Source: an uncultured virus (IMG/VR IMGVR_UViG_2775506815_000003) | Taxonomy: Duplodnaviria > Heunggongvirae > Uroviricota > Caudoviricetes | IMG/VR virus record: IMGVR_UViG_2775506815_000003 | Location: 1 to 64,000 of that record | Strand: one strand, 5' to 3' | DNA: 64,000 nt | Part shown: positions 44,283 to 64,000 of the stretch, in pieces | Layout of the letters: each line of letters starts with the position of its first letter | Numbering within the stretch: the first letter of the stretch is position 1 | Made by a program: the position numbers and the translations under genes | The notes under the pieces: generated by a model | The model's input: the letters and a program-made list of their open reading frames with translations, nothing else | What the model was told of the DNA's origin: nothing | Databases searched by the model: none

Positions 44283-45254
44283 ATGCATTTAGTTAAAGTT
44301 GAGGATGGGCTACTAGAGATAGACAATTTCCTTTTAACTTCTCCTATAGAAGATTTCCTGGGGAATGGTGAATATCACCGGACTCCGGATAAATTTATTT
44401 TACAAAAAGGTGAAGTTGAGAGACGACTAAATTATAATGAAGTACTTATTATTGTTGAGAAAGAACCTGTAATATTGGATAAGGATGATAGGTTTGAATT
44501 CTATTTAAGTGATGAAGAAAATAAAGCAGGAATAGAAGAAATCTATAATACTGAATATACTCGATATTGGAAACTAATATACCATGATGGCTTTATACAA
44601 GGATATAATTCGGATAATGCAAAGGAATGGTTTAATGTAGGAGGCACTAAGTTTAACAGACCTTTATATCAAGGCTTTAAAGCAAAAGGAAAAGAACTTA
44701 CTATAAAAAGTTATCAAGTGTATAGAAGCCCTTATATAACTATACAAAATTATTATCCAGGAACTTTAGTTAAGTTATTTGATGTTGAAGGTAATCTTAT
44801 AAAGGAAAGAAAATTTGAAGATAACAATGAATGTAACCTATTTTTAGATTATCCTATGTTAGGCACACTAGAATTTTATGATTCTTCAGGAGAGATGGTT
44901 TATAAAAGCAACCCCATATATTTTAAGTATGGGGATGTTTTTATGTTTACAGAATATAATCTTCAGTTATTCTACAGAGGGCAGTTGTTAACTCATGAAA
45001 CTACTACACTTTACAGTTTAGTAGAAACTGTAGTTTTAAAAAATAACTCAGAAGAGGTTTATAAGAACATTGAATTATCAATAAACAAAAACAATACTGA
45101 TGATATAACTATAAGTCTTGATAATATTGATTTTTATGAAAACTTATTAATAGATGAAATGAATCCAGGAGAAGAGCAAAAAATCTTCATAAAAATAATT
45201 AAAGATAAAACAACACTATTTAAGATGAATGACTTTACCCTAGAAATAACATAA
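44283..45254 (+). CDS. Tail-region beta-rich protein
   Basis: ORF in cluster. Confidence 0.55.
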   Translation: MHLVKVEDGLLEIDNFLLTSPIEDFLGNGEYHRTPDKFILQKGEVERRLNYNEVLIIVEKEPVILDKDDRFEFYLSDEENKAGIEEIYNTEYTRYWKLIYHDGFIQGYNSDNAKEWFNVGGTKFNRPLYQGFKAKGKELTIKSYQVYRSPYITIQNYYPGTLVKLFDVEGNLIKERKFEDNNECNLFLDYPMLGTLEFYDSSGEMVYKSNPIYFKYGDVFMFTEYNLQLFYRGQLLTHETTTLYSLVETVVLKNNSEEVYKNIELSINKNNTDDITISLDNIDFYENLLIDEMNPGEEQKIFIKIIKDKTTLFKMNDFTLEIT

Positions 45255-45266
45255 AGGAGTGATCTT

Positions 45267-45629
45267 ATGGATGCTTTGAGGGATAACAACAAAGTACCAA
45301 GCATGTTAGCAGCAGATACAGAAGGAAAAAGAACAATTCCTATAAAAGCCACTGAAAGTGGTTCCTTGATGGTAACGGGCAGTAAGAGACTTAAAGAAGT
45401 AATAAGAATTGATTTAAGTGATCCAAGAAATAAGATTTTATTTGATAAATCTTTCAGTGAAATAACTGTTCCATTAATAGAAGGGACTTTTAAATTATAT
45501 TTAGATGAACCAGTAGAAAGCAGATCTTTAACGATAAATAGAGCTTTAAGTATAGAAACTACTGCTGAGAAATTCTATATTTCTAACGATAGTAGCAAAG
45601 GCAATGCTGAAATATGGCTATGGGAATAA
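45267..45629 (+). CDS. Hypothetical protein
   Basis: ORF with RBS. Confidence 0.55.
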   Translation: MDALRDNNKVPSMLAADTEGKRTIPIKATESGSLMVTGSKRLKEVIRIDLSDPRNKILFDKSFSEITVPLIEGTFKLYLDEPVESRSLTINRALSIETTAEKFYISNDSSKGNAEIWLWE

Positions 45630-45641
45630 GGAGGAATAAAA

Positions 45642-46043
45642 ATGGCAGTTAAATTTTTTTCAACTGAAAATAATAGCGGGAATTGTGAAGGGGGAAACAT
45701 AAATGTAAAACAAGTAACAAAAATGAATGTTGTAGCCACCTCAGATAATCCACACGTTATAGAAATACCTATTCCATACACAAATACATTTGATAAATTA
45801 CCAATTGAGGTTTTGAAACTAGAAGGAAAAGAACAAGTAATAGTGGAAACAGTAGCTCAATTTGATAATGCAGATGCAACAGATTTTGAACCAAACGAAT
45901 TTGTAGAGTTTGATGGTACTATGCATCTAAAAACAGATTATGTATTTGATACTGAAGTAGCAAATGAAAAGGATGGAATCTATAGTTTTGATTTAAATAA
46001 GTTAGATGATTTTAAAGATTTAATAGATATTAAATGCATATAG
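45642..46043 (+). CDS. Hypothetical tail-region protein
   Basis: ORF with RBS. Confidence 0.55.
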   Translation: MAVKFFSTENNSGNCEGGNINVKQVTKMNVVATSDNPHVIEIPIPYTNTFDKLPIEVLKLEGKEQVIVETVAQFDNADATDFEPNEFVEFDGTMHLKTDYVFDTEVANEKDGIYSFDLNKLDDFKDLIDIKCI

Positions 46044-46055
46044 GAGAGTGTTAGA

Positions 46056-47816
46056 ATGGCTAATGGAAACTTTGCAGGAGGGGATGGCAGTCTTGCCAAT
46101 CCTTTTCTAATAGAAGATGCACATGATTTAAATGTAGTTAGGAATGGGTTAGATAAACATTATAAGCTAGTAAAAAATATAAATTTGGATATAGAACCTT
46201 ATAACCAAGGGGATGGATGGGAGCCAATATCTAAGTTCTGGGATGATGCAACTAGATTTAGAGGAGTAATAGACGGAGATGGACATTTTATAGTAGGTCT
46301 TTATAGTAAAATAAATGGATTAATAGGACATACAATAAATGCACAAATAAGAAACTTAAATCTAATAAACGTACATGTAGAAGGAAGTCACCCATACTTA
46401 GGAGGACTACTGGGGCATACAAGAAATACTGTAATAGAAAAATGTAATATAAGCGGGGTGGTAGATGGTAGAAGTAAAACGGAAATAAGTGAGAGTGATT
46501 TGGGTGGTTTGGTGGCGAGAGTTCACAATGGTGGAACTTTAAAGAATTGTAAATCATCATGTAAAGTCTATACTAATAGACATACTTATGTTGGAGCATT
46601 AGTAGGAGCTGTGATAGATTCAACAATAACGGATTGTGTGTCTATAGGAAATATTAAACTGAGAGGGGTCCAAACACATGGTAGTAGTGCAAGATTATTC
46701 TGGGATATGTCTCTATACGGAGGAAATGATGGCGGGCTTACAACTACTCAGATGCAAAACACACAAACATTTATAGATGTTGGGTGGGATAATATACTGA
46801 ATAATGATGAAAGTAATGTGTGGATTCTAGAAGAAGGGAAATATCCAGAGCTATGGTTTGAGAAGCTTGTTAAGTTAAAAAGATATTTGTTCCAGTGTGG
46901 TAACAATATCATGAAGCCAACGGAAAATGGATTAAGCAAAATAGGAGATATGCCAGCAACCAGTCAAATGTTTGATGATTATGGCACAGATGACTTAAGT
47001 GACATAATAGGCAAAGTTGATAAAGCCTTTGAAATGAAATACAAAGAAGATTTAGAGGATAGGAAATTATATAGATATAAATTAATTGGATTTAAAGATA
47101 TATGTATTTTAAGAAATGTAAAAGAAACAATTATAGACCCAGATATAGAGCTAGGAACACAATTATTAAATCCATTAGACGGTTATGAAAGATATTATGC
47201 AAATCATAGTAATTTTAGTTATACGGGAACCTGGGACATTTCTGGAGCTAATAATAATTATAAAACTACTACAACTCCTAATTCTACTGCTACGTTCATG
47301 GTTCCAAAAGATGGGGATTTATTACTTCTTGGTAATGTAAGATATAGCTTTAGACCATCAAAAATAGAAGTTTTAGTAAATGGTGTCTTAGATGGAAGAT
47401 TCAGCCAAGTGTATAGTGATGCAATAGACAATGGCAGAAGTCTTTCTGTATGGGCAATGGTGAAAAATATGAAAGTTGGAGATAAAGTGAAGATAGTTCC
47501 ATATGGCTTAACATCAAATGTTTTATTTTCACTACATGCTATAGATATAGGAGGAAAATTTAGAAATTTAATCTATAAGGATAACAAATACTACATCTAT
47601 CAAGATAATGAGTTTATAGAAGTTGAACCTACTATAGAAAATTTTGAGAAATATGGTATAGATTTATTGGATATAGTAACAACCCCCACTGATAAAGTAA
47701 GAACAACTATGGAAGCAAAAGGTGATTTAGGAGATGGAAGAGAATTTTCTAAAGTATTTGATATGACTGAATTTAAGAAACAATTTAGAAATATAAAGAA
47801 GATAAATGAGGTTTAA
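46056..47816 (+). CDS. GLUG-repeat beta-helix adhesin/fibre-like protein
   Basis: FAGGDGS..NPFLI, GGLVA/GALVG repeats. Confidence 0.75.
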   Translation: MANGNFAGGDGSLANPFLIEDAHDLNVVRNGLDKHYKLVKNINLDIEPYNQGDGWEPISKFWDDATRFRGVIDGDGHFIVGLYSKINGLIGHTINAQIRNLNLINVHVEGSHPYLGGLLGHTRNTVIEKCNISGVVDGRSKTEISESDLGGLVARVHNGGTLKNCKSSCKVYTNRHTYVGALVGAVIDSTITDCVSIGNIKLRGVQTHGSSARLFWDMSLYGGNDGGLTTTQMQNTQTFIDVGWDNILNNDESNVWILEEGKYPELWFEKLVKLKRYLFQCGNNIMKPTENGLSKIGDMPATSQMFDDYGTDDLSDIIGKVDKAFEMKYKEDLEDRKLYRYKLIGFKDICILRNVKETIIDPDIELGTQLLNPLDGYERYYANHSNFSYTGTWDISGANNNYKTTTTPNSTATFMVPKDGDLLLLGNVRYSFRPSKIEVLVNGVLDGRFSQVYSDAIDNGRSLSVWAMVKNMKVGDKVKIVPYGLTSNVLFSLHAIDIGGKFRNLIYKDNKYYIYQDNEFIEVEPTIENFEKYGIDLLDIVTTPTDKVRTTMEAKGDLGDGREFSKVFDMTEFKKQFRNIKKINEV

Positions 47817-47858
47817 AATAATAGTTTGATATTATTTAGAGAGGAGGAAAGAGAATAA

Positions 47859-49397
47859 GTGAACATACATCGATTAATGAAAGAACATGGGGTAGCTTGG
47901 TGGAAATGTAAAAATGATACAGATGATATTTTAGTAGATGAACTTGGCATATATAACGGAACTGTTAAAGGAGCTAAGTTAATTGATACTTCTATAGGAA
48001 AAGCTAGAAGATTTGAGGGTGGAAGTAATATTATAGAATTTAATTCTATAGTAATTCCAAAAACTGGAGCTTGTTCAATCAGATTTAAAATGATGATACC
48101 AGAAATACCAACTAGTTTAGGGCGAATATTATCAACAAGAAATACTACTGCTGAGAACGGAATATATATAATAATAAAAGAAACAGGGGATATAGAAGTC
48201 GCCTTGTTTGATGTTGGAAATCCAAGTACTTCAGTGGCTACATTGAGATATCCTTTTCCAATAGATGGACAATGGCATGACATTGGAATTATATGGTCTG
48301 ATACTATCAAAGGTAGTGATGTTAAGTTATATATAGATAATATGTCAACTCCAGTAAAAGAAACTTTTACAAGTAATCCAATAAGTTTTAATATGGCAAA
48401 TGTGCTAAGGATAGGGAATGTTTCTCAATTAAATCAAGGCTTAGTAGGGGATATTACACAAGTAGAGATTTTTAATTCAGTTATAGATTTTTCAAAAGTA
48501 ATATATAGTAATAATAAATATTTAATAAAATCTCAAAATAAAGTTAATACACTATTTGAAGGAGTATGGACTGATATTACAGAAAATATAATAGATATAG
48601 ATAACATAACCCAAGAAGAATATAAACAATATGGAATGAAATTTTTAGAAGATGTTCCAATAGATTTTATAAATCAATTAAAAGAATTTGAAGTTTTAGC
48701 TTATTCAAAAGATGATGAAAATCCTAAACTAGAATTAACTGTTGATGAATATAAACCTATTATGACTTTAGATGACCCAGAAATAGTTACACTAACAGAT
48801 TCCAATAATCCACTATTACATATAGAAGGGTATAGAGATTTAAGACCTTATTGTAAGAGTGATGTTAAGAATCTGTTAATACAGTCTTCTATAGAGCCAA
48901 ATATGAAAATAACAAGTGTACCTAAGCCACAATTAATTAAGCCAAAGGATGATATTGTATTTAGAGAACTAAGTAAAGTATTAGACTTTCAAGTAATTGC
49001 AACAGAATCAAATGAGGGAAGAATAAGAATTATATTTAGTATAGATAGCGGAGCTACTTGGATGACATACAATGAAGCTACACAAGATTTTGTAGAAATA
49101 AACGAACAAGATTTAGATGAAGTTGAGGAAAATGGAATAAAAATATCTGTACTTAATTCAATAAAAGAAAAATGGGGAGATATTGTTACAAAAGGCAAAG
49201 TTAGATTCGCATACTACTTAAAAATTGATAATCTATCTGATACAGCAGAAATTGATGAGTTAATAGCTACTTTAAATATTTTAGGATTTTGGGAATCTAC
49301 AATACATGAAGAAGATTATGATTATAGATATGATAATGTTACTATTTATATAGAATTATATAGAGATGGGAGTTACAAGATAAATTATACAGAATAG
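47859..49397 (+). CDS. LamG-like domain protein with shared C-terminal module
   Basis: DGQWHDI, LYIDN; SIDSGATW..RFAYYL..DGSYKINY. Confidence 0.7.
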   Translation: MNIHRLMKEHGVAWWKCKNDTDDILVDELGIYNGTVKGAKLIDTSIGKARRFEGGSNIIEFNSIVIPKTGACSIRFKMMIPEIPTSLGRILSTRNTTAENGIYIIIKETGDIEVALFDVGNPSTSVATLRYPFPIDGQWHDIGIIWSDTIKGSDVKLYIDNMSTPVKETFTSNPISFNMANVLRIGNVSQLNQGLVGDITQVEIFNSVIDFSKVIYSNNKYLIKSQNKVNTLFEGVWTDITENIIDIDNITQEEYKQYGMKFLEDVPIDFINQLKEFEVLAYSKDDENPKLELTVDEYKPIMTLDDPEIVTLTDSNNPLLHIEGYRDLRPYCKSDVKNLLIQSSIEPNMKITSVPKPQLIKPKDDIVFRELSKVLDFQVIATESNEGRIRIIFSIDSGATWMTYNEATQDFVEINEQDLDEVEENGIKISVLNSIKEKWGDIVTKGKVRFAYYLKIDNLSDTAEIDELIATLNILGFWESTIHEEDYDYRYDNVTIYIELYRDGSYKINYTE

Positions 49398-51082
49398 AGG
49401 TGATTTAGATGGCTAATGGATTGTTTGCAGGTGGAGATGGTAGTGCTAATAATCCTTATTTGATTGAGGATGCTCATGATTTGGATGCTATTAGAAATGG
49501 ATTAGATAAGCACTATAGACTTATAAATGATATTGATTTAAATATAGAACCTTATAATGAAGGAGGAGGATGGAATCCTATAGGAAGTTTACAGATCCCA
49601 TTCGCTGGGAGCTTCAATGGGGATGGTCATAAGATAGAAAATTTGTATATCAATAGACCAAATGGGAGTTATCAAGGCTTATTTTCTACTATTATTAATA
49701 GTAGTTTGAAAAACATTACACTAGAAAAAGTAAATATTACAAGCCGTTCTAATATCGGAAGTTTAGTAGGGATAACGAGAGGTTCTAGTACAATAGAAAA
49801 TGTAAGCTCTACAGGAACTGTTAGAGTAAGCACGATTTCTGGAGGATTGATTGGAAGAGTTGATTGGAGAGAAGAAGACGAAGTATATATAAAATCTTTA
49901 AAATTTGATGGAGAGATTATTGGTGGTTCAGAAGACGGTGGAGAAGTGTCATATATAGGTGGGATTATAGGAATTTTGAAAGGGAACATAGAGAATTCTT
50001 ACTTTACGGGGAAAATAACATTTAAAAATAATGTTTTAAGATGTGGTGGAATTGTAGGGAATGTTTACCCTGATAGTAAGATAAAAAACACATATGCTAG
50101 TAACAAATTTGATATATCAGTAGTAGAGACAATCACACAACTAGGCGGAGTATTTGGGTATTTATCTAATGCAACAACTTCTGTAGTTACTAATTCATTT
50201 TGGAATATAGAAACATCTGGAATCACAACACCTGCAGTTGGAAGTACTGGGTTAACAACTCAACAAATGAAAGCAGTTCAAACATTTATAGATGCAGGTT
50301 GGGATAAAGAGCTAAATGATGAAGGTAATCCTATATGGATTTTAAAAGATGGAGAATACTCTAAATTATGGTTTGAACAAGAAACGAAACCAAATCTATA
50401 TTTATTCCAATGTGGTAATAGTATAATAACTACAAAAAAAGATGGCTCATTAGAAAAAGTAGGAGAAATACCAGTTACAAAAGAAATGTTTGATGAGTAT
50501 GGTATAGAATATTTACCGAATACTATAGGACAAATTAGCAATGAAGAACCTAAAAAATTATTAATAAATTCAATAATAGAACCTAAAATTAATATTACTT
50601 CTATACCAAAACCACAAATGATATTTCCAACAGGAGACATAATCATCCCAAGTGGAGCAAATCTATTAAATGTAGCTGTTGATGGTAAATCAAATAATGA
50701 CTTAGTAAAGATGATATTTAGTATAGATAGTGGAAATACATGGTTAACAATAGATGAATCTAATAATATAATCCAGATAGACCATAACAATCTAGGTGAT
50801 GTAAAAAATAAAGGTATGACATTATCTATGATAAACAATGTAGGGTCAATCTGGAGTAATCTGGTGTCTGACAAAATAAGATTTGCATATTATCTAGAGA
50901 TAGAATCATTAGATGATGAGGAATATCTAGATAATTTAGACATAACTCTATATGTACCTGCAAAATGGGAAGCTATAGATGAGTATAGATATGGATATGG
51001 AAATGAAAAAATCCATGTTCGATTATATAAAGATGGAAGTTACAAGATAAATTATACAGAATAGAGGTGATTTAGATGGCTA
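49371..51082 (+). repeat. 45-bp exact direct repeat at gene junctions (49371-49415, 51038-51082)
   Basis: AGTTACAAGATAAATTATACAGAATAGAGGTGATTTAGATGGCTA twice. Confidence 0.9.
49409..51064 (+). CDS. GLUG-repeat protein with shared C-terminal module
   Basis: N-terminus paralogous to 46056, C-terminus to 47859. Confidence 0.75.
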   Translation: MANGLFAGGDGSANNPYLIEDAHDLDAIRNGLDKHYRLINDIDLNIEPYNEGGGWNPIGSLQIPFAGSFNGDGHKIENLYINRPNGSYQGLFSTIINSSLKNITLEKVNITSRSNIGSLVGITRGSSTIENVSSTGTVRVSTISGGLIGRVDWREEDEVYIKSLKFDGEIIGGSEDGGEVSYIGGIIGILKGNIENSYFTGKITFKNNVLRCGGIVGNVYPDSKIKNTYASNKFDISVVETITQLGGVFGYLSNATTSVVTNSFWNIETSGITTPAVGSTGLTTQQMKAVQTFIDAGWDKELNDEGNPIWILKDGEYSKLWFEQETKPNLYLFQCGNSIITTKKDGSLEKVGEIPVTKEMFDEYGIEYLPNTIGQISNEEPKKLLINSIIEPKINITSIPKPQMIFPTGDIIIPSGANLLNVAVDGKSNNDLVKMIFSIDSGNTWLTIDESNNIIQIDHNNLGDVKNKGMTLSMINNVGSIWSNLVSDKIRFAYYLEIESLDDEEYLDNLDITLYVPAKWEAIDEYRYGYGNEKIHVRLYKDGSYKINYTE

Positions 51083-51594
51083 TAGGTAATCGAAACAGTG
51101 GAACCCAAGTATCAAAAAATTATTGGGATATAGAAGCAAGTGGTCAAACTACATCTGAAGGAGCAGCAGGAAAGACTACACAAGAAATGAAGACACCTTC
51201 TACCTATAGATGGGAGCATATATATAATCCGGAGAATAATAATGAGAAAGTATGGATTCTCAAAGAGGATGAATATCCTAGGTTATGGTATGAAGCTGGA
51301 CTAAATAGAAAAAAATACTTAGTTCATGATACAAGAAATGGGTACTTATATACAATTAAAAATGATAAACTAGAACCTATAAATTCCATGATACCTATAG
51401 AGGTTAATGATTTTGAAAAAGGAACGGAAGAATTATCAGATATTATTGGAGAAAGAGAAATATCTGCAAATATGAAAAAAGTATCTGATAAAGAGTTTGA
51501 GGATTATAATGTTTATGAGTATCCAATTTGTGGTTATAGCAGATTATATAAAATAAATATTTATGGTAAAGGAATACCAAATATAAAGGGGTGA
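51076..51594 (+). CDS. Shortened GLUG-paralogue
   Basis: YWDIE.SG, KTTQEMK, VWILKE.EYP.LW only. Confidence 0.55.
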   Translation: MAIGNRNSGTQVSKNYWDIEASGQTTSEGAAGKTTQEMKTPSTYRWEHIYNPENNNEKVWILKEDEYPRLWYEAGLNRKKYLVHDTRNGYLYTIKNDKLEPINSMIPIEVNDFEKGTEELSDIIGEREISANMKKVSDKEFEDYNVYEYPICGYSRLYKINIYGKGIPNIKG

Positions 51595-51601
51595 TTAAGC
51601 A

Positions 51602-52894
51602 ATGAGTGAAGTAATAAAATGGGATAAAATTGGAGACTATATTATATTATCTGAAAATGGGTTGACATTATCTAGAGAAGTCTTACACTCTAGTGCATAT
51701 TATCAAGGGGCAATAGCAAACTCAAATGGAAAATCTGGAAAATTCTATTGGGAAATAGATATGTTGTCAGTTAAAAACTATATAATGGTTGGATTATTAA
51801 ATTCAACGGCAAATATTCAGAGTATGGGCAGAACTGTTGAAGATGCCCAAAAAGCTATACCACTTTCAAGAAGCTATAGTTCATCGGCCACGGGAAGTAC
51901 TATAAGAATTAAATTTGATACTATAAATAGGGTTTTAGAAGTTGATGATTATAAAATTACTAATGCAGGGGGTTTTCCAGCAGTAGTAATGTCTCCAGCT
52001 GTAGGTAATTCTATAAGAGCTAATTTTGGGGCTACTCCATTTAAATACCCTATTCCAGAAGGATATAGGCCATATAATGATGTAGAAGAGGGAGAAATGC
52101 CCGATTGTTTTCATTATTCTTTAATAAAGTCTGAAAATAAATATTATGATATTGATTTAGATAATAGTTCTTTGTTTGAAGTTCCTTTTGAATTAGAATC
52201 ATTCATAAATAGTAATGTAAATACTGAAACAATAAAATCTATGGATGATTCAGGAAAATTGTTAGTTAATAATCTTCTGAACCCTATTATAACATCTATA
52301 AGTGAATCAGACTTGATGATTGAGATATCAGCATTTAGAGATATAAGAGTTACAACAAGTTTAGATTTACAATTAGATATATTAAGCATAGATAAACCTG
52401 CTATAGACTTAAAAGCTATTCCAAAACCACAAATAATTATTTCAAAAGATAATATACCAATACCAGTAAATGCAAGAATAATGGATATGAACTTAATTGC
52501 TACAGAAAATAAAGGTTCTTTAAGAATCATTTTTAGTACAGATGATGGAGTAACTTGGAATACTTTAAATAAAGAAGAATTAAATGTAATAAACATAGAT
52601 ATAAATAATTTAGATGAAGTAAAGAAAAAAGGTTTAAATATAGATGATTTTAATAACATAGGATGGATGTGGGATTCTATTATAAAGAAAAATAAAATAA
52701 GATTTGCATATTATCTAGAAATAGATAGTAAAGAAGATAAAGCAGAGACCAAAGAAATGAATGCTGTATTTACTGTAATAAGTACTTGGAAAAAAGCTAA
52801 ACATAAAAAAGCTTTCAACTATGAATACACAAATACTAAACTTATAGTAGAAATCTATAATGATGGAAGCTATAAAATCAATTATAAAGAGTAA
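51602..52894 (+). CDS. SPRY-like domain protein with shared C-terminal module
   Basis: SGKFYWEI, ANFGATPFKYPIPEGY; RFAYYL..DGSYKINY. Confidence 0.75.
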   Translation: MSEVIKWDKIGDYIILSENGLTLSREVLHSSAYYQGAIANSNGKSGKFYWEIDMLSVKNYIMVGLLNSTANIQSMGRTVEDAQKAIPLSRSYSSSATGSTIRIKFDTINRVLEVDDYKITNAGGFPAVVMSPAVGNSIRANFGATPFKYPIPEGYRPYNDVEEGEMPDCFHYSLIKSENKYYDIDLDNSSLFEVPFELESFINSNVNTETIKSMDDSGKLLVNNLLNPIITSISESDLMIEISAFRDIRVTTSLDLQLDILSIDKPAIDLKAIPKPQIIISKDNIPIPVNARIMDMNLIATENKGSLRIIFSTDDGVTWNTLNKEELNVINIDINNLDEVKKKGLNIDDFNNIGWMWDSIIKKNKIRFAYYLEIDSKEDKAETKEMNAVFTVISTWKKAKHKKAFNYEYTNTKLIVEIYNDGSYKINYKE

Positions 52895-52952
52895 CCCTGA
52901 GAAGGGATTTTTTTATGCCCTTTTTAAGAAAAAATTTAGGAGGAGATGGAAA

Positions 52953-53363
52953 ATGAACCATAAAACAATTTTTAATGGAATTATAGCAACGGTAGGGACA
53001 GTATTAACTTATTTAATTGGTGGATGGAATGCTTCATTAAAAATATTAGCTGTATTTATAATAAGTGATTATCTAACTGGTATAATGAATGGATTCGTTA
53101 ACAAAAAATTATCCAGTTCAGTTGGATTTAATGGATTATTAAGAAAAGCTGCTATATTTTTTGTGATCATAATAGCTAATCAGTTGGACTTAGCGGTTAA
53201 TAACGATAATAATCTTTTCAGAACCATGGCTTGTTATTTTTATATAGCCAATGAAGGGATTAGTATAACAGAAAATTTAGCTATGCTAGGTGTTACATTA
53301 CCAGACTTTATGGTAAATGCTTTGAATAAGTTAAAAGAAGAAAGCAACGATATTATAAAATAA
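52953..53363 (+). CDS. Phage holin (holin 4 family)
   Basis: GGW, DYLTG, LSS.VG..G..RK, NEGISI.EN; RBS supports start 52953. Confidence 0.9.
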   Translation: MNHKTIFNGIIATVGTVLTYLIGGWNASLKILAVFIISDYLTGIMNGFVNKKLSSSVGFNGLLRKAAIFFVIIIANQLDLAVNNDNNLFRTMACYFYIANEGISITENLAMLGVTLPDFMVNALNKLKEESNDIIK

Positions 53364-53465
53364 AAAGTATTTTATTTAAAATCTTATACAAATATAGTAA
53401 ATAAGGTACCTTTGCCCCATATTAAGCAAAGGTACCTTTTAATATTAAATTAGGAGGTATTAATT

Positions 53466-54716
53466 ATGGTAAAAGTATTTTTAGATCCAGGACATGGAGG
53501 TAGTGATCCGGGAGCTTTAGGAAATGGTTTGAGGGAAAAAGACATAGCTCTATCAGCAACATTGAAAATAGGAGAAATCCTAAAAAATCATAATGTGGAA
53601 GTATATTATTCAAGAACAACAGATGTCTTTATAGAATTATCAGAAAGAGCTAGAAAAGCAAACAATATTGGTACAAATATTTTTGTTTCAATACATTGTA
53701 ATGCATATGATGGAACTGCTAAAGGTGTAGAAACTTATAGTTATCCAGGTGCCGTACAAGGTGCTAAATTATCAAAAAATATTCTTGATAGCATAATTGC
53801 TAGTGGAGTATATGCATCTAACAGAGGAACTAAAACAGCCAACTTTGCAGTACTAAGAGAAACCAATATGACAGCTGCATTAGTCGAAATGGCTTTTATA
53901 GATAATCCTCAAGATGCTGATATACTAAAATATAGGCAAGATGATTTAGCTAAAGCAATATCAAAAGGAATTTTGAATTATTTAGGTATTAAATATGTAG
54001 CTAATAATAAAGAGGAAACAAAAAAAACTCCTATTATTGGAAAAGCAACTGCAACAGTAGAGCAAATGAAAAAATGGGCTATGGACAAAGGTGCAAATCA
54101 AAAGTTTATTGATTTAGCGCCTTTGTTTTACTCAATATCTAATAAAGCTGGAATAAATCCCATAGTGACATATACACAAAGCGCCAAAGAGACAGGTTAT
54201 ATGAAGTTCGGAGGAGTATTAGATATAACATACAACAATCCATGTGGAATGAAGATATTAGCTGGTGGTGGAGACAAAGATCCTAATGCACACAAAAGGT
54301 TTGAGAACTGGGAAGAAGGAATACAGGCTCAAGTAGATCATTTAGCTTTATATGCTGGAGCTAACGGATACCCAAAATCTAATACTCCAGACCCTAGGCA
54401 CTTTCCTTATTTAAAAGGTAGTGCTGCTACAGTCGAAAGTTTAGGTGGTAAATGGGCCCCAAGCTCCAGTTATGGAACTGATATTGCAAAAATGATAAAG
54501 GAAGTTGAGAACACAAAAGTTCCAAGTATGGAAGAGGCAAAAGAAGAAAAACAACTTAATAAAATAAAAATAGATCTTCATGGCAAACAACTAGAAGTAA
54601 AAGGCATTTATGAAGAAGGGGCTAACTATATACCAGTTAGATTTTTAGAAAACCTAGGATATAAAATAGATTGGAAAAATGGAGCTGTGACGATAAATTA
54701 CAAGGAAGATAAGTAA
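53466..54716 (+). CDS. Endolysin: amidase_3 plus glucosaminidase-like domain
   Basis: LDPGHGG.DPGA, SIHCNA, LVEMAF; QSAKETG, NNPCG. Confidence 0.9.
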   Translation: MVKVFLDPGHGGSDPGALGNGLREKDIALSATLKIGEILKNHNVEVYYSRTTDVFIELSERARKANNIGTNIFVSIHCNAYDGTAKGVETYSYPGAVQGAKLSKNILDSIIASGVYASNRGTKTANFAVLRETNMTAALVEMAFIDNPQDADILKYRQDDLAKAISKGILNYLGIKYVANNKEETKKTPIIGKATATVEQMKKWAMDKGANQKFIDLAPLFYSISNKAGINPIVTYTQSAKETGYMKFGGVLDITYNNPCGMKILAGGGDKDPNAHKRFENWEEGIQAQVDHLALYAGANGYPKSNTPDPRHFPYLKGSAATVESLGGKWAPSSSYGTDIAKMIKEVENTKVPSMEEAKEEKQLNKIKIDLHGKQLEVKGIYEEGANYIPVRFLENLGYKIDWKNGAVTINYKEDK

Positions 54717-54792
54717 AAAAAATTAGGTCCAAAACTGCTAAAATAGTTTTTATCTTATAAATAAAATAGACAGAAAGAAGTGTGAAGCAAAT

Positions 54793-55032
54793 ATGAATTT
54801 AGTAAATATTACAGACTTAAATCTTATAGTATTTCTAGTATCGAAAGGTCATGAAATAAAAAACAGTAAGTTAGATGGCAATAGAAGCATAATATATTTT
54901 GAAAGAAACCCAAAACTTAGATCAGATATTATAAAATTTGCAAATGGTACTGAAAGTATTAATATAACAGAGTATCAAGCAACAGAGCAAAGGGTTAAAA
55001 CACTTTTATATCAAAATAAAAACTATAAATAA
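54793..55032 (+). CDS. Small hypothetical protein (DUF5659-like)
   Basis: I.DL.L..FL..KG..YF. Confidence 0.5.
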   Translation: MNLVNITDLNLIVFLVSKGHEIKNSKLDGNRSIIYFERNPKLRSDIIKFANGTESINITEYQATEQRVKTLLYQNKNYK

Positions 55033-55127
55033 ATTTAATGTAATTTTAATTTATATCCAAAACTACTTTCAACTTTAAACTTTCATATGCAACTTTCAAC
55101 TATTTGAAATAGTTGGAGGTTGTTAGT

Positions 55128-56159
55128 ATGGAAAGTATAAAAGTATTATCATTGTTTTCAGGAATAGGAGCATTTGAAAAGGCATTAACAAATTTAGACA
55201 TTAACTATGAAATAGTAAATTATTGCGAAATAGATAAGTATGCAAGTCATGCTTATAGCGTGATACACGCTGTAAGTGAAGATTTAAATTTAAAAGATAT
55301 CACTAAGATAGATATAGGATGTCTACCTTATTGTGATTTGATAACCCATGGATCGCCTTGTCAAGATTTCTCTGTATCGGGAGAAAATAAAGGTGGAGAT
55401 GAGGGAAGTAATACAAGATCAAGTTTAATGTGGAATACTGTAAGCATAGTAAAACACATTAGACCTCGATATGTGGTGTGGGAGAATGTAAAAAATGTAC
55501 TATCTAAGACACATGAACATAATTTTGATAAATATATTAATACTCTTAGAAAACTAGGCTATAACAATTATTATAAAGTATTAAATGCTAAAGATTTTAA
55601 CATACCCCAAAATAGGGAACGTATATTTGTAGTGTCTGTTCGGAATGATGTTAAGATATCAGATACTTGGATAGAAGATATAAATACTAAGGAACTGAGT
55701 ATGTGCTTAAAAGATATAATAGAACCTATAGAAATGGTTCCAGAAAAATATTATTTAAGTGAGAGTGTAACTAGTAAGTTAATATATAGACAAAATACTA
55801 CGGCCAAGAGTGGAATTACAATAGTAGGAGATTTAAATAATAGTGAACTAAAAATGAATAAACGCATATTTTCAACATTAGGCATATGTTCTACTATCCT
55901 TACCACTAATCCACCTAAAATATATATAGAAACTCCTACTGATACTGGATATAAAATCAGAAAGCTAATGCCAGTAGAGTGTTGGCGGTTGATGGGTTTC
56001 AGTGATAAGGATTATTGGAGGGTAAAGGAGACACTAGAGAAAACATTTTATAAAGGGAAAGATAGGACAGACAGTCAAATGTATAAAATGGCAGGAAATT
56101 CCATAGTGGTAAATGTATTAGAGTCTATATTTAAAAGTTTATTAATAGACCAGGATTAA
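55128..56159 (+). CDS. Orphan C5-cytosine DNA methyltransferase
   Basis: FSGIG, GSPCQDFS, ENV, QNRER, GNSI. Confidence 0.93.
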   Translation: MESIKVLSLFSGIGAFEKALTNLDINYEIVNYCEIDKYASHAYSVIHAVSEDLNLKDITKIDIGCLPYCDLITHGSPCQDFSVSGENKGGDEGSNTRSSLMWNTVSIVKHIRPRYVVWENVKNVLSKTHEHNFDKYINTLRKLGYNNYYKVLNAKDFNIPQNRERIFVVSVRNDVKISDTWIEDINTKELSMCLKDIIEPIEMVPEKYYLSESVTSKLIYRQNTTAKSGITIVGDLNNSELKMNKRIFSTLGICSTILTTNPPKIYIETPTDTGYKIRKLMPVECWRLMGFSDKDYWRVKETLEKTFYKGKDRTDSQMYKMAGNSIVVNVLESIFKSLLIDQD

Positions 56160-56175
56160 GTTCCTGGTCTTTTTT
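56146..56175 (+). terminator. Intrinsic terminator
   Basis: AGACCAGGA/TCCTGGTCT plus T run. Confidence 0.75.
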
Positions 56176-56348
56176 ATTTTTTGCATTCTATTTAAATATT
56201 CTGAAATATATTGAGGCAATACAAGAAAAATTATCTTTACATTTAGCCTAGAACAAGCTTTTATAATAGCACTAATAGAATTCCTATAGTACCATTATAT
56301 AATCGCTGCAATGGCCTATAAAAGCCTAATATGAGGAAAATGCTCTAT

Positions 56349-56834
56349 TTAAAAGATATTTTTATAAATTTCATAAAAATGAGAAGAATCATCTAATAAA
56401 TGACGAATATTTTTGTAATTTTGCCTTGCCGGAGGAGATTCTTCCTTCTCCCATCTAGAAATAGTTTTTCTATGAACATTTAATAAATCTCCTAATTTCT
56501 TTTGGGTTAAATTCAAATTCATTCTTATACTTATAATTTTATTACCATAATCACTACTAATAAAATTAAAATAATCATCATATACAATTGAAGGTTTTAC
56601 TTTAAGGGCTATACAAATTTTATTTATAATATCTATAGAATGCTCTACTAAATTATTTTCATATCTAATTATAGTAGCTCTATCTAAATTGGATTTAGTG
56701 GCTAATTCTTCTTGAGTAAAATTATTAAGTAGTCTATAATATTTGATACGAGAGCCTATAGTAGATAAATCAGAAATACCCTTTAATAAATTTTGATTGT
56801 GATTAAATGTTTCCGTAGTGATACTATTGCCAAT
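56349..56834 (-). CDS. Start-less double XRE-HTH reading frame running into the att site
   Basis: IGSRIKYYRLLNNFTQEELA..DRATIIRYE and LTQKKLG..HRKTISRWE; no ATG/GTG/TTG before first HTH. Confidence 0.75.
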   Translation of the reverse strand: MGNSITTETFNHNQNLLKGISDLSTIGSRIKYYRLLNNFTQEELATKSNLDRATIIRYENNLVEHSIDIINKICIALKVKPSIVYDDYFNFISSDYGNKIISIRMNLNLTQKKLGDLLNVHRKTISRWEKEESPPARQNYKNIRHLLDDSSHFYEIYKNIF

Positions 56835-56852
56835 GAAATATTGATGACTATA
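56814..56852. other. attR-like site of element 1 (crossover GA at 56835-56836)
   Basis: AATGA core; TAGTGAT/ATGACTA inverted arms 12 and 7 nt from centre. Confidence 0.65.
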
Positions 56853-56924
56853 AGGGCTAATAAAAAATCCAAAATAGAGGTATCATTACAAGAGCCTATA
56901 GGAGTAGATAAAGAAGGCAATGAA
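56832..56924 (+). CDS. sigK: Internal fragment of pro-sigmaK (split gene segment)
   Basis: NEILMTIRANKKSKIEVSLQEPIGVDKEGNE matches SigK region 2.4-3 (PIGxDKEGNE; SigE has PLNIDWDGNE); similarity stops at both AATGA. Confidence 0.9.
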
Positions 56925-56946
56925 TTACCCTTAACGGTTTATCTAT
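56904..56946. other. attL-like site of element 2 (crossover GA at 56922-56923)
   Basis: AAT-GA-ATT core; TAGATAAA/TTTATCTA arms 9 and 14 nt from centre. Confidence 0.75.
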
Positions 56947-56989
56947 CTTCAAGGGTACATATTGAAAAATACATAAGTATAGGGTTTGT

Positions 56990-58537
56990 CTATTTAGGCA
57001 GCTTTGGAAACAAAGTTAGAGTAAATTGGTCATTTCTTTGCTCTTTTTCTTTTTCATATACGGCAGAATCTAATACAGACTTAAGTAGTTTATTTTTCCT
57101 TTCTGGATCATCAGTCTTAGGGTATAGGTCCAATACCTTTTTTACCTTAGGAATTATATTTCGTTGAGCATCAATTCTTTTTTCTTCATTTTTTATATTT
57201 TTAGAAGTATTCTCTATGTTGAATTTAGTGTCATCAATCCTTTGAGCTAATAACTGTGACCTTTCTAAATAAGTATTTACATCATAAATTCCTCTTTCAA
57301 GTAAATCGTGTAAATTGTTTTTCTGCTTTTCTAATTCTTCTAATTCATTTTTTAGTCTGCTTAGGGAAAGTTTATGCATTCTTAAAGTATTGTTTGCTTT
57401 AGATTTATTTTCCTTGTCTTCTACATTGTCCCATTCAGCTTTATATTCTTCTAGCCATTCCTCTAGTCCTTTGAGAAGTCTTTGTTCTACAAACTTAAAC
57501 TTAGAACTTTTATTGTTACAACTAGTGTTATAACAGACTATATGAGGGTCTATATTGTTGGTATATGGTCTATACACCATAGAAGAACCACATTTTGAAC
57601 AAATGATAATACCAGCCAAAGGATTAGTTATTTTAGTTTTATATGGCACATGGCTTCTCTTTTTAAGGATTTCTTGAGCTTTATCAAATATATCATTACT
57701 TATTAATGGTTCATGTTTACCTTTTACACTTATCCATTCTTCACGGGGTAAACTTTTTACTTCTTTTATTTGTTCAGGATTATCAGATTTTTTATATACT
57801 TTCTTTCTCCATTGAATCTTTCCAACATATACTTCATTCTTAATGATATTTAGGACCAAGTGACTGGACCAGTTTTTTCCCGTGTATGTTTTATACCCTA
57901 GCTCGTTCAATTTATTAGCAATTTTACCGCCGCCCATGTTGTGGTTTGCATATAAATCAAATATCATTTTAACAATAGGTGCTTGTTCTGGATGTGGAGT
58001 TAGAGTTCTGGTTTTCCCTTCACAGACGATTTCATATCCAAAGGGAGGTAATGGTCCTAAAAAGTTTCCATCTTCTATAGAACGAACTCTGCCACGTTGT
58101 AAACGTCTATTTATTATTTTTAATTCCTTCCTAGCCATAAAAGCTTCAAACTCAGAATATTCTTCGTCAAATTCATCTTGAAGGTCATAAGTTTTTCTAG
58201 GAGTAATAATTTTTGTGTTAGATTCTTTGAAAGTTTCTAGTATTAAACCTTGCTCCTGCATATTGCCACGACCTAATCTATCCATGTCCATTACTAGAAC
58301 TGCATCGTATTCTTTATTCTTGACTTCTTTTAGTAATTCAAGCATTTCAGGTCTATGAACTAAACTCTCCCCAGAAACTATTTCTTCACGAATCCTTAAT
58401 ATATTAAGGCCTTTCTCCTTGGCCACTTTAAGCAATATTTTTTTATGTTTAGCTAAAGTTTCACCTTCACCATACTTTTCAGCTTCTTCATCAGCCCTAG
58501 ACTTACGAAGATACATGCAAATACGATCCATAGTCAT
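56990..58537 (-). CDS. Large serine recombinase of element 2
   Basis: MYLRKSR, EEIVSGE, DMDRLGRG, LAGIIICSKCG, coiled coil; intact 515 aa. Confidence 0.95.
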   Translation of the reverse strand: MTMDRICMYLRKSRADEEAEKYGEGETLAKHKKILLKVAKEKGLNILRIREEIVSGESLVHRPEMLELLKEVKNKEYDAVLVMDMDRLGRGNMQEQGLILETFKESNTKIITPRKTYDLQDEFDEEYSEFEAFMARKELKIINRRLQRGRVRSIEDGNFLGPLPPFGYEIVCEGKTRTLTPHPEQAPIVKMIFDLYANHNMGGGKIANKLNELGYKTYTGKNWSSHLVLNIIKNEVYVGKIQWRKKVYKKSDNPEQIKEVKSLPREEWISVKGKHEPLISNDIFDKAQEILKKRSHVPYKTKITNPLAGIIICSKCGSSMVYRPYTNNIDPHIVCYNTSCNNKSSKFKFVEQRLLKGLEEWLEEYKAEWDNVEDKENKSKANNTLRMHKLSLSRLKNELEELEKQKNNLHDLLERGIYDVNTYLERSQLLAQRIDDTKFNIENTSKNIKNEEKRIDAQRNIIPKVKKVLDLYPKTDDPERKNKLLKSVLDSAVYEKEKEQRNDQFTLTLFPKLPK

Positions 58538-58539
58538 AA

Positions 58540-58582
58540 AATCACCTCATTGGTATTTATATGTTTATTATATTGGAATATT
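58540..58582 (-). promoter_or_regulatory. Putative sigmaE-type promoter and RBS of recombinase 2
   Basis: 38/39 identical to 1641-1679; CATATAAAT -10, GAGGTGA RBS. Confidence 0.6.
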
Positions 58583-58793
58583 GGGGAAAAGGAAAGTAGT
58601 TTAGTTGAAGTTATGTGGAATAGGCCTACAATAAGTGAAATATATGTTCTTTTGTTATTATGGCGTATTTAAATTAAAATGTAGAAATAAATAAAATAAT
58701 TTACTTTTAACTATGAAATAATATTTTTTAAGAATAAAGTTCCTTTTGAGTACATAATATTATATAATGATCATGACAAGGAGGGATAATAAA

Positions 58794-58931
58794 ATGAAAG
58801 AGCTTATTTGTACAACTTTATTGACAATAATTACCTATACCGCTACGCAGTTTTTCTCCATAAATAATTCAGCTTTGGAAGCGTTGGTAAATTCAATCCA
58901 GTTGTTATCCCAATCTTTTTTATGTGGGTAA
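58794..58931 (+). CDS. 45-aa hydrophobic peptide
   Basis: AAGGAGGG RBS; MKELICTTLLTIITYTATQFF... Confidence 0.5.
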   Translation: MKELICTTLLTIITYTATQFFSINNSALEALVNSIQLLSQSFLCG

Positions 58932-59006
58932 GAGTTCCTAAAAATTATCTAAAAGTTATGTGTTTTAAAAGCGTAAATATAAAATATCTAATAAATATTA
59001 AATTAG

Positions 59007-59357
59007 ATGATTGCAAAATCTCTGATACTCATTTTTACTCATTTTAGAGAAATTAGGCAGGATTTATTGATGTTAGATCAAACAAATGATAGTAGAATAC
59101 TCAAACAGAATTTTGGAGATATAATGTATTTGTCTACTATTGAAGTAAATAATGGAATAATTGATTTGTCATATTATATTGATGAGGGAAGCTTAATTAT
59201 TCAATCTAAAAATAGAGTTAAATATAAGGTATTCTTTAGAATATCCGAAGACCTTTTTCAAAAAGTAAATTCAGTGTTTACTGATAATAAAGGTATTTCA
59301 TATAACAGTGATAGCGTGAAAAATAATTCGAAGCAAAGCAAAAATGAGTATACTTAA
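59007..59357 (+). CDS. Hypothetical protein
   Basis: ORF only. Confidence 0.35.
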   Translation: MIAKSLILIFTHFREIRQDLLMLDQTNDSRILKQNFGDIMYLSTIEVNNGIIDLSYYIDEGSLIIQSKNRVKYKVFFRISEDLFQKVNSVFTDNKGISYNSDSVKNNSKQSKNEYT

Positions 59358-59404
59358 TAAAGGCCTATAAAGGTCTCAAAAATTAAGTTTAATTTTGTTT
59401 ATAG

Positions 59405-60662
59405 CTATGCCACAGAAATATCCGTATCTTTTATAATACCATTAGAGATTAATAGTTTTATAGCTTGATTAAGGGCTTTCTCTTTTTGTTTATTCATTAA
59501 TTCTTGTGGCATATCAATTTTATATAGATCAGAAGGATTCCATACTTCCTCTGTTACAAACATATTATAAATAGCAGTTAGTATCATCCTCGCTATAACG
59601 ATAATTGCTCTCTTTTTTCCTCTCCTTTTGTAAATGCATTCATATTTATTTTTGTAGTAAGGAGATTTGTCCGATTTAACGGCAGTATGGGCAACTTGTA
59701 CCAATGCTGGTTTGAGGTAAACTCCAGCACGTGTAATTCGAACAGATTTCTTCTTACCAGCAGATTCATTGTTGCCTGGTGTTAAACCAACCCGGCAACA
59801 CAAACGCTTAGAGCTGGAAAATTGAGACATACCAATACCAATCTCAGAAATAATAGTGATAGCTGAGTCCCTTTTGACCCCGGGAATGGTACATAAAATA
59901 TTTACATGATTTTCATAGGGCATAATCATCTTATTTAAATTTTCATCAATCTCTGCAATTGATGAAGTGACATAATTAAGATGTGATCTAACCATTAATA
60001 TGCGTTCTTTTTGTTCTTGTGTCATTTGGTAACCTTCAATAGATTCAATTACTAGATCTGCTTTTTTCTTTAAGCTTTTTTGTAAAAGTGAAGTACAATA
60101 GTCTGGGTTAAATGAATCTGAAGAAATTAGATAGTCTGTGATGGAAGTGGCAGATTTGCCAAACATGTCGGAAACGACAGCATCAAAGGCTACATTACCA
60201 ACAGTGAAAGCATTTTGAAATCTATTTTTTTCACTACTTCTACAAGAAACAAGTTTTGAACGATGACGAGTATATTCACGAAGAATACTAATTGGCTTAC
60301 TGGGGATATAAACTTCCAGATACTAAACCTAAACGAAACAGATCACCAATCCATTTAGAATCTTTGACATCATCCTTATTACCTTTTATTGCTTTAACCC
60401 ATTTAGGGTTAGCAATGGTTACGTTGATAGTGTCCTCTAAAATGTTAAAAACAGGTATCCAATACTTTCCTGTAGATTCCATGTATACATCATAGCAGTT
60501 GTTATCAATAAGCCATTGCTTAAATTGTAAGATGGAATTATTAAAAGTAGAGAATCTCTTTTTTGAATAATGTGGGGTAATCCCCTGTGAAATGATGATT
60601 GTGGCAACGAGAAAAGTTTTATGCACATCGACACCACAACAAATAGGATAAACAACTTTCAT
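59405..60662 (-). pseudogene. IS110-family transposase, frameshifted near 60300
   Basis: GVDVHK, MESTG.YW, K.D..D; TIPGV, GLTP..ESAG; one-base shift joins the two ORFs. Confidence 0.9.
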
Positions 60663-60783
60663 AGCACAGCCTCCTTTTAAGATAATGAGGAGAAGACATT
60701 GACTGAATCGTCACACATATAACTATTAGCTAAAGCAATGATTAGCGTGCGGACTTTTAGTACCAATTATTTGTGCTTGAAAG

Positions 60784-61467
60784 ATGGTTCTTATTAATAG
60801 TGATAAAAGTGAGCAAAAAGATTTCCAATATGATTTATTTCCGGCGCTAAAGAAGAGCTTGACACAATTAAATAAGGATAGGAAAATAGATTTAATTCTC
60901 TTATCTGGCGATTTAATTGATAAGAGAGGAAGGGGATTTGAAAATATAGATGTAGCATTTAATCGATTTAGAAAAGAATTTATATTGCCTATTAGTGAAG
61001 AGTTGAATATCCCAGAGAATTTATTTATACTAACTCCAGGTAATCATGATGTTGATCGAACTAAAATTAACCCTAATACAGATAGGGGTCTTAAAATTAA
61101 CCTACAAAATACAGATGTTGTTAATAGGGAGATTGAAGAAAATAATCCTGATAATATAAGGGGTATATTGTCATATAAAAATTTTGAAAGAGAATTTTAT
61201 AAAGATAGTGATAATTCAATAATAACTGATTTTCATTCATCACACATAATAAATATAGATGGATTGAGGTTTAGTATATCTTGTATAAACTCAGCATGGA
61301 CATGTTATGAATCAGATGAAACAGATAGGCTGATTATAGGAGATAGACAAATAAGTAATGCATATAACGAAATTAAAGATTGTGATGTTAAGATAGCTTT
61401 GATGCATCATCATTTTGATTTACTAATAAAGTTTGATAAGCGTGATGTAAAAAATAAAATTGGATAG
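60784..61467 (+). pseudogene. Metallophosphoesterase fragment, truncated by flanking IS elements
   Basis: LSGDL, PGNHDVDR, NSAW, MHH; lacks N-terminal DxH motif; ends in IS3 IRL. Confidence 0.75.
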
Positions 61468-61529
61468 GTTACACTTAATAGGACAGATCTTTACTTAACA
61501 TGGTACAATAAAATCAGGAGGAGATTTTA

Positions 61530-61804
61530 ATGACCAGGAAACGTTATGATGAAGATTTTAAAAGACAGTTAGTAAAGATCTATAACCAAGGAAATCACAG
61601 CTATAGAAGCCTTGCTGATGAATATGGTGTAGCTGCCCCTACTATCAGAACATGGGTAATGAGATATAATAATTCCCAGTCTTTTAATATAGAAGAAAAT
61701 AGAACTGAAGAAGATAGAGAATTAATAGAGCTTAGAAAGAAAGTAAAACAACTGGAAATGGAGAATGATATCTTAAAGCAGGCAGCACTACTACTAGGCA
61801 AAAA

Positions 61805-61808
<4 letters not shown>
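61530..61808 (+). CDS. IS3 OrfA
   Basis: [27 protein letters not shown]. Confidence 0.85.
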
Positions 61809-62667
<859 letters not shown>

Positions 62668-62768
62668 TTTTAAATAAAATCTATGTTAAGTATGATTTTA
62701 TCTAAAAAGGGGTTGCCAATCCAGTATTTAATCCTATTGGTTCATTAAGTATAAATAATATTCAATCA

Positions 62769-64000
62769 TTGTTATCAATCAATGGACATCAATTACGACT
62801 TCCTAGGATTGAAATTAAAATGAATAGCATAAGAGATCAAATAATTATAAATAATAATAAAATTCAACTAATTAATAAAGAGTTTGCAGATTATGTTGTC
62901 AGCTATTATTTTAGCAAAAAAGATGTCAAAGAATTTATAAAATGTATTTTTGATTGGTTTGCACATGGCCAAGAAGTAGAGTATGCTCTAATTGGAGACT
63001 TCTTAAGATATGGTAAAAGATATGAAAAAATGAACTACATAAAAATCGAAGAGTTATTAGATAGGTTTATTAACAAAAAATATGAATTAGGAGATGCAAA
63101 CTCTTTATTCAAATTAGGCATATATATTTATTATGAATATGCAGAAATGAAAAATTATGCTATTAAACTTCTTGAAAAAGCTAATGATATGAATAATTTA
63201 GATGCTAAAGCTGCATTAGGAATTTGTTATTTAGATGGAAGTAACTTAAATGAAATTAATAAAGTAAGAGGCGAAAAATTATTAAGAGAAGTAGTTGTAT
63301 TAGATAACATTAAGGCTAAAGAAATATTAGGTAACATGTTAATTAAAGGAAATATAATAAAGAGGAATGAGATTGAAGGGGAGAAGCTTTTAGAAGAAGC
63401 TACTCTAAAAGGGAGTAATTTTGCTAAATATACATTAGCTGTGAGAACATTATTTGGGTATGGTATAAAAGCTGATTCAGACAAAGGAAAGAAATCACTT
63501 TATGAATTAATAGAGGAAAATGATACTAAAGCAATGATTGCACTTGGGGAAGCGCTAATAGACGGAATTGGTAGTAGTTTTAATGTAGACGAAGGAATAA
63601 AGTTATTGAATAATGCCATTGATCTAGGAAATAATAGAGCAAAATTATATTTAGCATGTAGATTTGTTTTAGGTGAAGGAGTAGAGCAAGATTGTAGAAA
63701 AGGAATAAGAATGGTTGAAGAACTAGCTGAAAAGGGAGAGACAGATGCTAAACTTTATCTAGCGAATTATTAATTAAAGGAAGATATGTAGATAAAAACG
63801 TTGAAAAAGGCTTAGATATATTAAAAAAATTGATGAGAGGTAATAATACAGATGCTATCATTGTATACTCTAAATTACTTATAGAAGGAAAAGGGATTAA
63901 TCAGGACATTAATGAAGGAATTAAGTTATTAGAAGATCTAGTAGAGAAAGATAATTTAGATGCTATCCATGAATTAGGCAAGTTATTAATAGATGATGAA
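62769..64000 (+). pseudogene. SEL1/TPR-repeat protein, frameshift near 63770, continues past window
   Basis: Repeating A...LG..L..G.G...D..G..LL..A; repeats resume in another frame after the stop. Confidence 0.75.

Follow-up and report, generated by a model that had tools for sequence, protein, structure and literature searches.

Elements that interrupt sigK are known from several spore formers. In Bacillus subtilis the gene is split by skin (SpoIVCA, Skr), a prophage-like element with a large serine recombinase gene at its edge that is read opposite to sigK, as at the locus described here; in the accessible portions of the literature, the skin recombination site is characterised by AATGA (PMC10745906) and skin is inserted in another region of sigK than PhiS63, skinCd and skinCt. 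The Clostridium perfringens phage PhiS63 and the sigK prophages of Clostridium tetani (phiCT453A and relatives) carry integrases 48-53% identical to Int2, one of the two recombinases of the present locus, and use the same insertion place in sigK. The sigK-intervening element skinCd of C. difficile is excised by the large serine recombinase CD1231 with the directionality factor CD1234, and the available part of the published record reports it as a single insertion near the PhiS63 site and in the opposite orientation. Further insertion positions in sigK (nt 195 and nt 423) are in print for the B. cereus group, and a survey of 15 genomes gives skin elements of 2.6-48 kb, in both cases according to the excerpts at hand. 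Outside sigK, the gin element in gerE of Bacillus cereus ATCC 10987 is described in the accessible text as minimal and non-prophage, holding little beyond an integrase and a directionality factor. In the nif genes of heterocystous cyanobacteria (e.g. Calothrix NIES-4101), several elements are found per gene or operon and all must be removed; the available descriptions include inverted segments, and both the developmental system and the recombinases are other ones. The arrangement of recognition motifs within att sites was taken from the Listeria (A118-family) integrase, for which the accessible part of Rutherford et al. 2013 (PMC3783163) gives half-site positions of 16-24 (attP) and 11-19 (attB) for the zinc-ribbon motif. 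A search of article full text, as distinct from supplementary files, returned no report of sigK in three pieces in the portions accessible to it.

The window is the whole stretch of 64,000 nucleotides that was analysed (G000:C14:378964-442963). In a profile search, the sigma-K model TIGR02846 gave three separate plus-strand matches on this one contig (Table 1). The middle piece is a micro-exon of ~90 bp lying between a 56,863-bp prophage (element 1) and a 26,538-bp degraded element (element 2), both lengths being measured from shared core to shared core. The first break (site 1) falls within codons for Cys-Ile-Glu-Asn-Glu-Ile-Leu, the second (site 2) within codons for Glu-Gly-Asn-Glu-Ile-Ser. 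Precise removal of elements 1 and 2 in silico restored an intact gene, as with skin-type elements: a 225-codon open frame with 89% identity to the intact sigK of G001, a genome of the same genus, and colinear at both sites with every intact orthologue aligned (24/24). The rebuilt attB1 and attB2 have the 10-mer AATGAAATAT in common, which covers Asn-Glu-Ile codons, and among the intact orthologues AATGA is present at site 1 in 21/24 and at site 2 in 24/24. Unlike the PhiS63 case, a second element is present 90 bp upstream in the same gene. The best explanation, given a probability of roughly 80%, is that the micro-exon is bounded by two independent hybrid att sites of two unrelated large serine recombinases, Int1 and Int2, with crossovers at AA in site 1 and GA in site 2. 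These two positions are proposed from the symmetry of the rebuilt sites and from the blocks common to their left and right junctions.

Table 1. Coordinates of the split sigK gene, its att sites, the two elements and related loci (window positions, unless a contig or locus is named).
Feature	Position	Strand	Remarks
sigK 5' piece	C14:378641-378946, just left of window	+	TIGR02846 positions 14-115
sigK micro-exon match	56817-56954	+	TIGR02846 positions 106-151
sigK micro-exon between proposed crossovers	56834..56921	+	TIGR02846 match and translation; model positions ~106-151
sigK 3' piece	83451-83720, past right end of window	+	TIGR02846 positions 138-226
10-mer AATGAAATAT	56832-56841; 56919-56924 continuing past attR2		Rebuilt attB sites
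attL1	31 bp left of window start, centre at window -31/-30		Partner junction of attR1
attR1 hybrid site	56805..56858	+	P arm 56805-56831, gene (B') arm 56834-56858
Outer motif AAATGTTTCCG on attR1 P arm	56805-56815		11 bp
Proposed crossover dinucleotide AA, site 1	56832..56833	+	Dyad centre inside AATG block
attL2 hybrid site	56897..56948	+	Gene (B) arm and element (P') arm
TAGATAAA on attL2 gene (B) arm	56905-56912		9 nt from GA
Proposed crossover dinucleotide GA, site 2	56922..56923	+	Dyad centre of rebuilt attP2
TTTATCTA on attL2 element (P') arm	56938-56945		14 nt from GA
Element 1, part inside window	1..56831	+	Prophage, 56,863 bp core to core
Int1, large serine recombinase, 545 aa	1..1638	-	Resolvase, Recombinase and Zn_ribbon_recom domains
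Small ORF, 59 aa, proposed RDF of Int1	7798..7977	+	Homologues in minimal Int1-type elements
Element 2, part inside window	56924..64000	+	Whole element 26,538 bp, end at window 83457
Int2, large serine recombinase, 515 aa	56990..58537	-	Resolvase, recombinase and zinc-ribbon domains
ORF, 76 aa, in element 2	68975-69205 (L051:4975-5205), beyond window end		Candidate Int2 directionality factor
Int2 homologue	G021		74% identity to Int2
Int2 homologue	G059		73% identity to Int2
Int2 homologue	G345		63% identity to Int2
Int2 homologue	G130		61% identity to Int2
Int2 homologue	G189		45% identity to Int2
G130 sigK loci	L056 (C3:1865-6403); L083 and L084 (C10)		

The assembled sequence contains one ambiguous base (N) at window 19341 and another within the opening codons of the sigK 5' piece (C14 near 378640), which gives an X in the translation of that piece. 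When public sequencing runs were compared with window positions 56500-57200, four runs were listed, none with more than 0.09 of the sampled words; no run containing this stretch was found, whether of DNA or of RNA.

For site 2, attP2 was rebuilt by joining the element-side sequences of attR2 and attL2. The product is an imperfect inverted repeat around GA, symmetric at 19/25 positions (next best centre, 13), and this GA lies inside AATGAA, the block common to attL2 and attR2; the inner ten bases of the two arms are perfect complements (left TAAGGGTAAT, right ATTACCCTTA). GA was also the attP dyad in 6/6 Int2-type elements (G000, G021, G059, G345, G130 and G189), with 17-24/25 symmetric positions against at most 12 at other centres. 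As a check on the method, the same dyad scan was run on PhiS63, where it centred on GA, inside the published, experimentally determined 10-nt core. As given in the accessible text, that core (GTAATGAAAT) contains the AATGAA of site 2, and the PhiS63 attP dyad falls on the same GA; element 2, with its homologous integrase, is inserted at this same core of sigK. Site 2 is a PhiS63-type site, already known, though the arm motifs of PhiS63 are unlike those of element 2.

The arms of site 2 were then numbered by half-site as in the Listeria integrase model (PMC3783163). The octamer TAGATAAA is found on both element arms with a 14-nt spacer and on a gene arm with a 9-nt spacer, that is, at positions 16-23 and 11-18, respectively, in agreement with the positions in the accessible portion of that report. 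Within attL2, TAGATAAA and TTTATCTA form an inverted pair matching at 8/8 positions, 9 and 14 nt from GA, just as the initial annotation had described it. Unlike in the model, the motif is seen on a single gene arm: the copy 5 bp nearer the centre is seen on the B arm of site 2, and the B' arm has none at the expected place, its best match being 6/8 and 2 nt further out. On the gene arm of attL2, the outer recognition motif would lie 5 bp closer to the centre than on the element arm, as the zinc-ribbon-domain model predicts, and it may be this domain that reads the motif.

The left junction of element 1, attL1, which is outside the window and so was not visible to the initial annotation, reads AATGC against AATGA in attR1, so the block common to the two is AATG only. 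The common block is AATG in five of the six Int1-type elements (G000, G004, G016, G009, G012 and G130) and ATAGAAAATG in the other; it never includes the next base, since attL1 reads AATGC in 6/6. Rebuilt attP1 is an imperfect inverted repeat around AA, inside the block common to attL and attR, and AA was the dyad in 6/6 Int1-type elements, with 15-20/25 symmetric positions against at most 10 at other centres. The conserved outer block of site 1 occupies half-site positions 18-28 and has no evident shifted copy, unlike the Listeria model: inspection and a shift scan of site 1 gave nothing clear, the scan being highest, though weakly so, at 5 (0.38 and 0.45; background up to 0.41). The B. subtilis skin element presumably occupies site 1.

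Strand exchange had initially been placed at GA in both junctions, 87 bp apart, with a 5-bp difference between the arms of each. For the right junction this placement agrees with the dyad of attP2; for the left it is highly improbable, and the evidence that had invited it can be accounted for otherwise. Hexamers AATGAA do occur at both junctions (starts at 56832 and 56919, 87 bp apart), the rebuilt attB sites do share a 10-mer, and an inverted pair, TAGTGAT (56816-56822) and ATGACTA (56844-56850), does match at 6/7 positions 12 and 7 nt from the left GA (56835-56836). However, this GA is excluded as the site 1 crossover because attL1 reads AATGC, so that its A is not common to the recombining sites in any of the six elements. 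The symmetry of attP1 is 7/25 about GA against 19/25 about AA, and with GA as the centre the best match between the element arms is obtained 6 nt out of register (shift of 6 instead of 0). The two inverted pairs were also compared with 6000 random centres in this window, inverted pairs being sought within 26 nt. A pair of at least 6/7 was found at 45% of centres (2698/6000) and one with exactly a 5-nt offset at 4.6% (278/6000); the corresponding rates for an 8/8 pair were 1.4% (83/6000) and 0.1% (6/6000). By these rates the right pair is well beyond chance and the left pair is not, and the latter is weaker still because its centre had been chosen freely. About AA, the left pair sits 9 and 10 nt out and the 5-bp offset disappears at this junction; the match is coincidental, and the centre about which it had been read is the wrong one. 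The proposed crossovers are consequently 90 bp (30 codons) apart, and the distance of 87 bp applies to the hexamer starts. Both fall on codon positions 1-2, so the common codon phase that had been noted is retained even with different dinucleotides (AA and GA). Exchange at AT or TG, with asymmetric binding of the recombinase, would also be compatible with the common block of site 1, as AA, AT and TG all lie inside AATG and symmetry alone does not prove a cut position. This is unlikely: across the six elements the symmetry is 3-5/25 about AT and 5-8/25 about TG against 15-20/25 about AA, the 11-bp outer motif AAATGTTTCCG in G000 is exactly 16 nt from AA on each attP1 arm, and serine recombinases are known to cut at the centre of the dimer-bound site.

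At the right junction, the alternative to be weighed is that the shifted TAGATAAA arose by coincidence between conserved sigK codons and an A+T-rich phage arm. The gene-arm copy does fall in conserved codons (Val/Ile-Asp-Lys) and is fixed by coding, so conservation of the motif on the gene side is uninformative by itself; the motif is missing from the second gene arm, and the shift-5 similarity was not seen in G189, the most distant Int2-type element. Against coincidence, an 8/8 pair with the 5-nt offset is as rare among random centres as stated above, and the positions of the motif equal those of the Listeria integrase motif. The outer motif has the consensus T-A/T-GATAA-A/C, and in 5/5 closer relatives the GATAA core is kept on both element arms at the 14-nt spacing, and at 9 nt on the gene arm, despite variation in the spacer sequence between core and centre. 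When the outer parts of the element arms were compared with the gene arm by shift scan, similarity peaked at a shift of 5 (0.54 and 0.51, against 0.15-0.41 elsewhere). Coincidence is on this evidence improbable. The reading of the right junction holds and is supported by comparison with the related elements.

Under the preferred explanation, two independent sites with crossovers at AA and GA, site 1 would belong to Int1, with strand exchange at the AA that opens the AATG common to attR1 and attL1, and site 2 to Int2, a relative of the clostridial phage integrases that integrate in sigK. Int1 would excise element 1 and Int2 element 2, in each case probably with the aid of a small directionality factor belonging to that element, and both excisions would be needed for an intact sigK. 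As the initial annotation foresaw, a joint between the outer sites would skip the micro-exon in frame (90 bp being 30 codons in the same codon phase), and differing arm motifs would stand in its way. Three differences would block such a joint: the arm motifs are unlike, identity between the two enzymes is only 22%, and the central dinucleotides do not agree, the last of these being a difference that had not been foreseen. No single enzyme would have half-sites in both outer sites, and with serine integrases unequal central dinucleotides block religation. The half-sites that face into the micro-exon (~56834-56858 for site 1 and ~56897-56921 for site 2) do not overlap, so that neither site depends for its completeness on the other being occupied or empty. 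The general view of an in-frame micro-exon between two orthogonal serine-integrase sites is upheld.

Taken one at a time, both att sites are ordinary members of the serine-integrase kind. The unusual part is that both sigK sites are occupied at once, leaving a 90-bp micro-exon with one half-site per system. A broader proposal, which we regard as evenly balanced between right and wrong, is that sigK in G000 and in the unrelated G130 is under a two-key lock, in which two orthogonal serine-recombinase units 90 bp apart would both have to act in the mother cell for sigma-K to be produced. Each unit would have att sites and a central dinucleotide of its own, as well as a separate small directionality factor belonging to a protein family not yet described; the micro-exon would be just long enough for both inward half-sites, and either element could integrate or excise independently. 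If both elements do excise in sporulation, the locus would be a natural case of two orthogonal integrases acting in series on one gene. For each enzyme, the six-member natural series of attP, attB, attL and attR sites would be useful raw material for studying how such sites are read.

The occupancy of the two sites was surveyed in G000 and its relatives. An intact sigK was found in 24/41 genomes. Within this 41-genome sample site 1 was occupied by Int1-type elements in G004, G009, G012 and G016, and site 2 was occupied in G021. G002 and G024 were left out of the counts; their contigs end exactly at site 2, which suggests an insertion there. G005 had been considered as a further split sigK and was rejected, as its two contigs overlap and read through both sites, indicating an assembly break. 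Among 399 genomes scored across the class, an Int1 homologue (E <=1e-90) was found in 39 and an Int2 homologue (E <=1e-60) in 37. Nineteen Int1-homologue loci outside G000 were fetched, and a sigK piece broken at site 1 lay beside the recombinase in 15 of them; the C-terminal sigK piece ran unbroken through site 2 in all 12 of the Int1-homologue loci that show this piece. In G220 and G383 sigK is in two pieces only.

Among the genomes examined, both sites were occupied only in G000 and in G130, a member of another family of the same class. In G130, too, sigK is split into three, with elements of these two types, and the pieces are distributed over two contigs. One of these, of 8.5 kb, holds the micro-exon, an arm of an Int1-type element, and an arm of an Int2-type element together with the integrase of the latter; on the other, a 250-kb contig, 48 kb separate the N-terminal from the C-terminal piece. 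The assembly was probably split by a repeat.

Int1 and Int2 each exceed the cut-offs for PF00239, PF07508 and PF13408, the domains of large serine recombinases, and their genes sit at the left edges of element 1 and element 2, respectively. The stop codon of Int1 is window 1-3, only 3 nt from the outer motif of the attL1 P' arm. The best phage matches of Int1 are 44-46% identical to it, and homologues with 58-83% identity adjoin the same sigK junction in G004, G016, G009, G012 and G130. Int2 shares 60.6% identity with the integrase of phage THSA-485A, 52-53% with the integrases encoded by the Clostridium tetani sigK prophages and 48% with the PhiS63 integrase; in five further genomes (Table 1) an Int2 homologue lies beside a sigK piece broken at site 2.

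Element 1 has Pfam matches to a terminase large subunit, a portal protein, a tail tape-measure-like protein, an amidase and a C5 methylase. Element 2 has the look of a decayed remnant into which IS elements have inserted: its Pfam matches within the window are pieces of an IS110-family transposase, IS3-type HTH pieces, a metallophosphoesterase and Sel1-repeat proteins, those beyond the window are HTH repressors, a DnaB-type helicase and Phg_2220_C, and no virion genes were found among the 23 ORFs scanned with Pfam.

Candidates for directionality factors were sought by comparison with the fully sequenced small elements, which retain little besides an integrase and one small ORF. The 59-aa ORF of element 1 has homologues in both fully sequenced small Int1-type elements, those of G009 (6.2 kb, 78% identity) and G012 (2.6 kb, 59% identity), and is proposed as the candidate directionality factor for Int1. 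The 76-aa ORF of element 2 has homologues in the 2.4-kb G021 element and in G345 and may play the same part for Int2. Neither the 59-aa ORF nor the 76-aa ORF had a significant Pfam match; in PHROGs the former had no significant match and the latter none. Across the candidate directionality-factor ORFs, Pfam gave only matches with E >=0.1, all below cut-offs, and in PHROGs one ORF weakly matched two families of unknown function and the other two ORFs matched nothing.

Some of the loci recovered in the survey differ from the two-element arrangement. The minimal sigK elements (L041 in G021, ~2.4 kb; L038 in G012, ~2.6 kb; G383:C78:116650-120564, ~3.2 kb) hold essentially an integrase and one small conserved ORF, the ORF having been checked in G021 and G012. 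In this they resemble gin as described in the accessible text, from which they differ in gene and in recombinase. In the one-contig genome G345 (L086, G345:C1:176000-183500), the N-terminal sigK piece (3863-4375, minus strand) and the C-terminal piece (5648-5941, plus strand) are 1.3 kb apart, with the Int2-type integrase beside the N-terminal piece and the hybrid sites in inverted orientation; restoration of sigK would consequently need an inversion of ~1.7 kb carrying the 5' half rather than an excision. In G034 (L040, G034:C5:57000-69400), sigK is split almost at site 1 with a 10-bp direct repeat, CATAGATAAT. The 9.7 kb separating the two pieces encode an HD-domain protein, chemotaxis receptors, a MatE transporter and a PLD-like protein, and the six ORFs of 200 aa or more that were scanned include no recombinase.

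Within element 2, an IS110-family transposase is divided between two ORFs (window 59405-60662, minus strand), one carrying the DEDD and the other the Transposase_20 domain, and is probably a frameshifted pseudogene; it is followed by IS3-type fragments at 61530-62226. In element 1, the region next to Int1 (window 2040-5905) carries a 'Beta protein' (PF14350) gene and an Mrr-type restriction-endonuclease domain fused to an FtsK/SpoIIIE ATPase, and these genes may be defence cargo.
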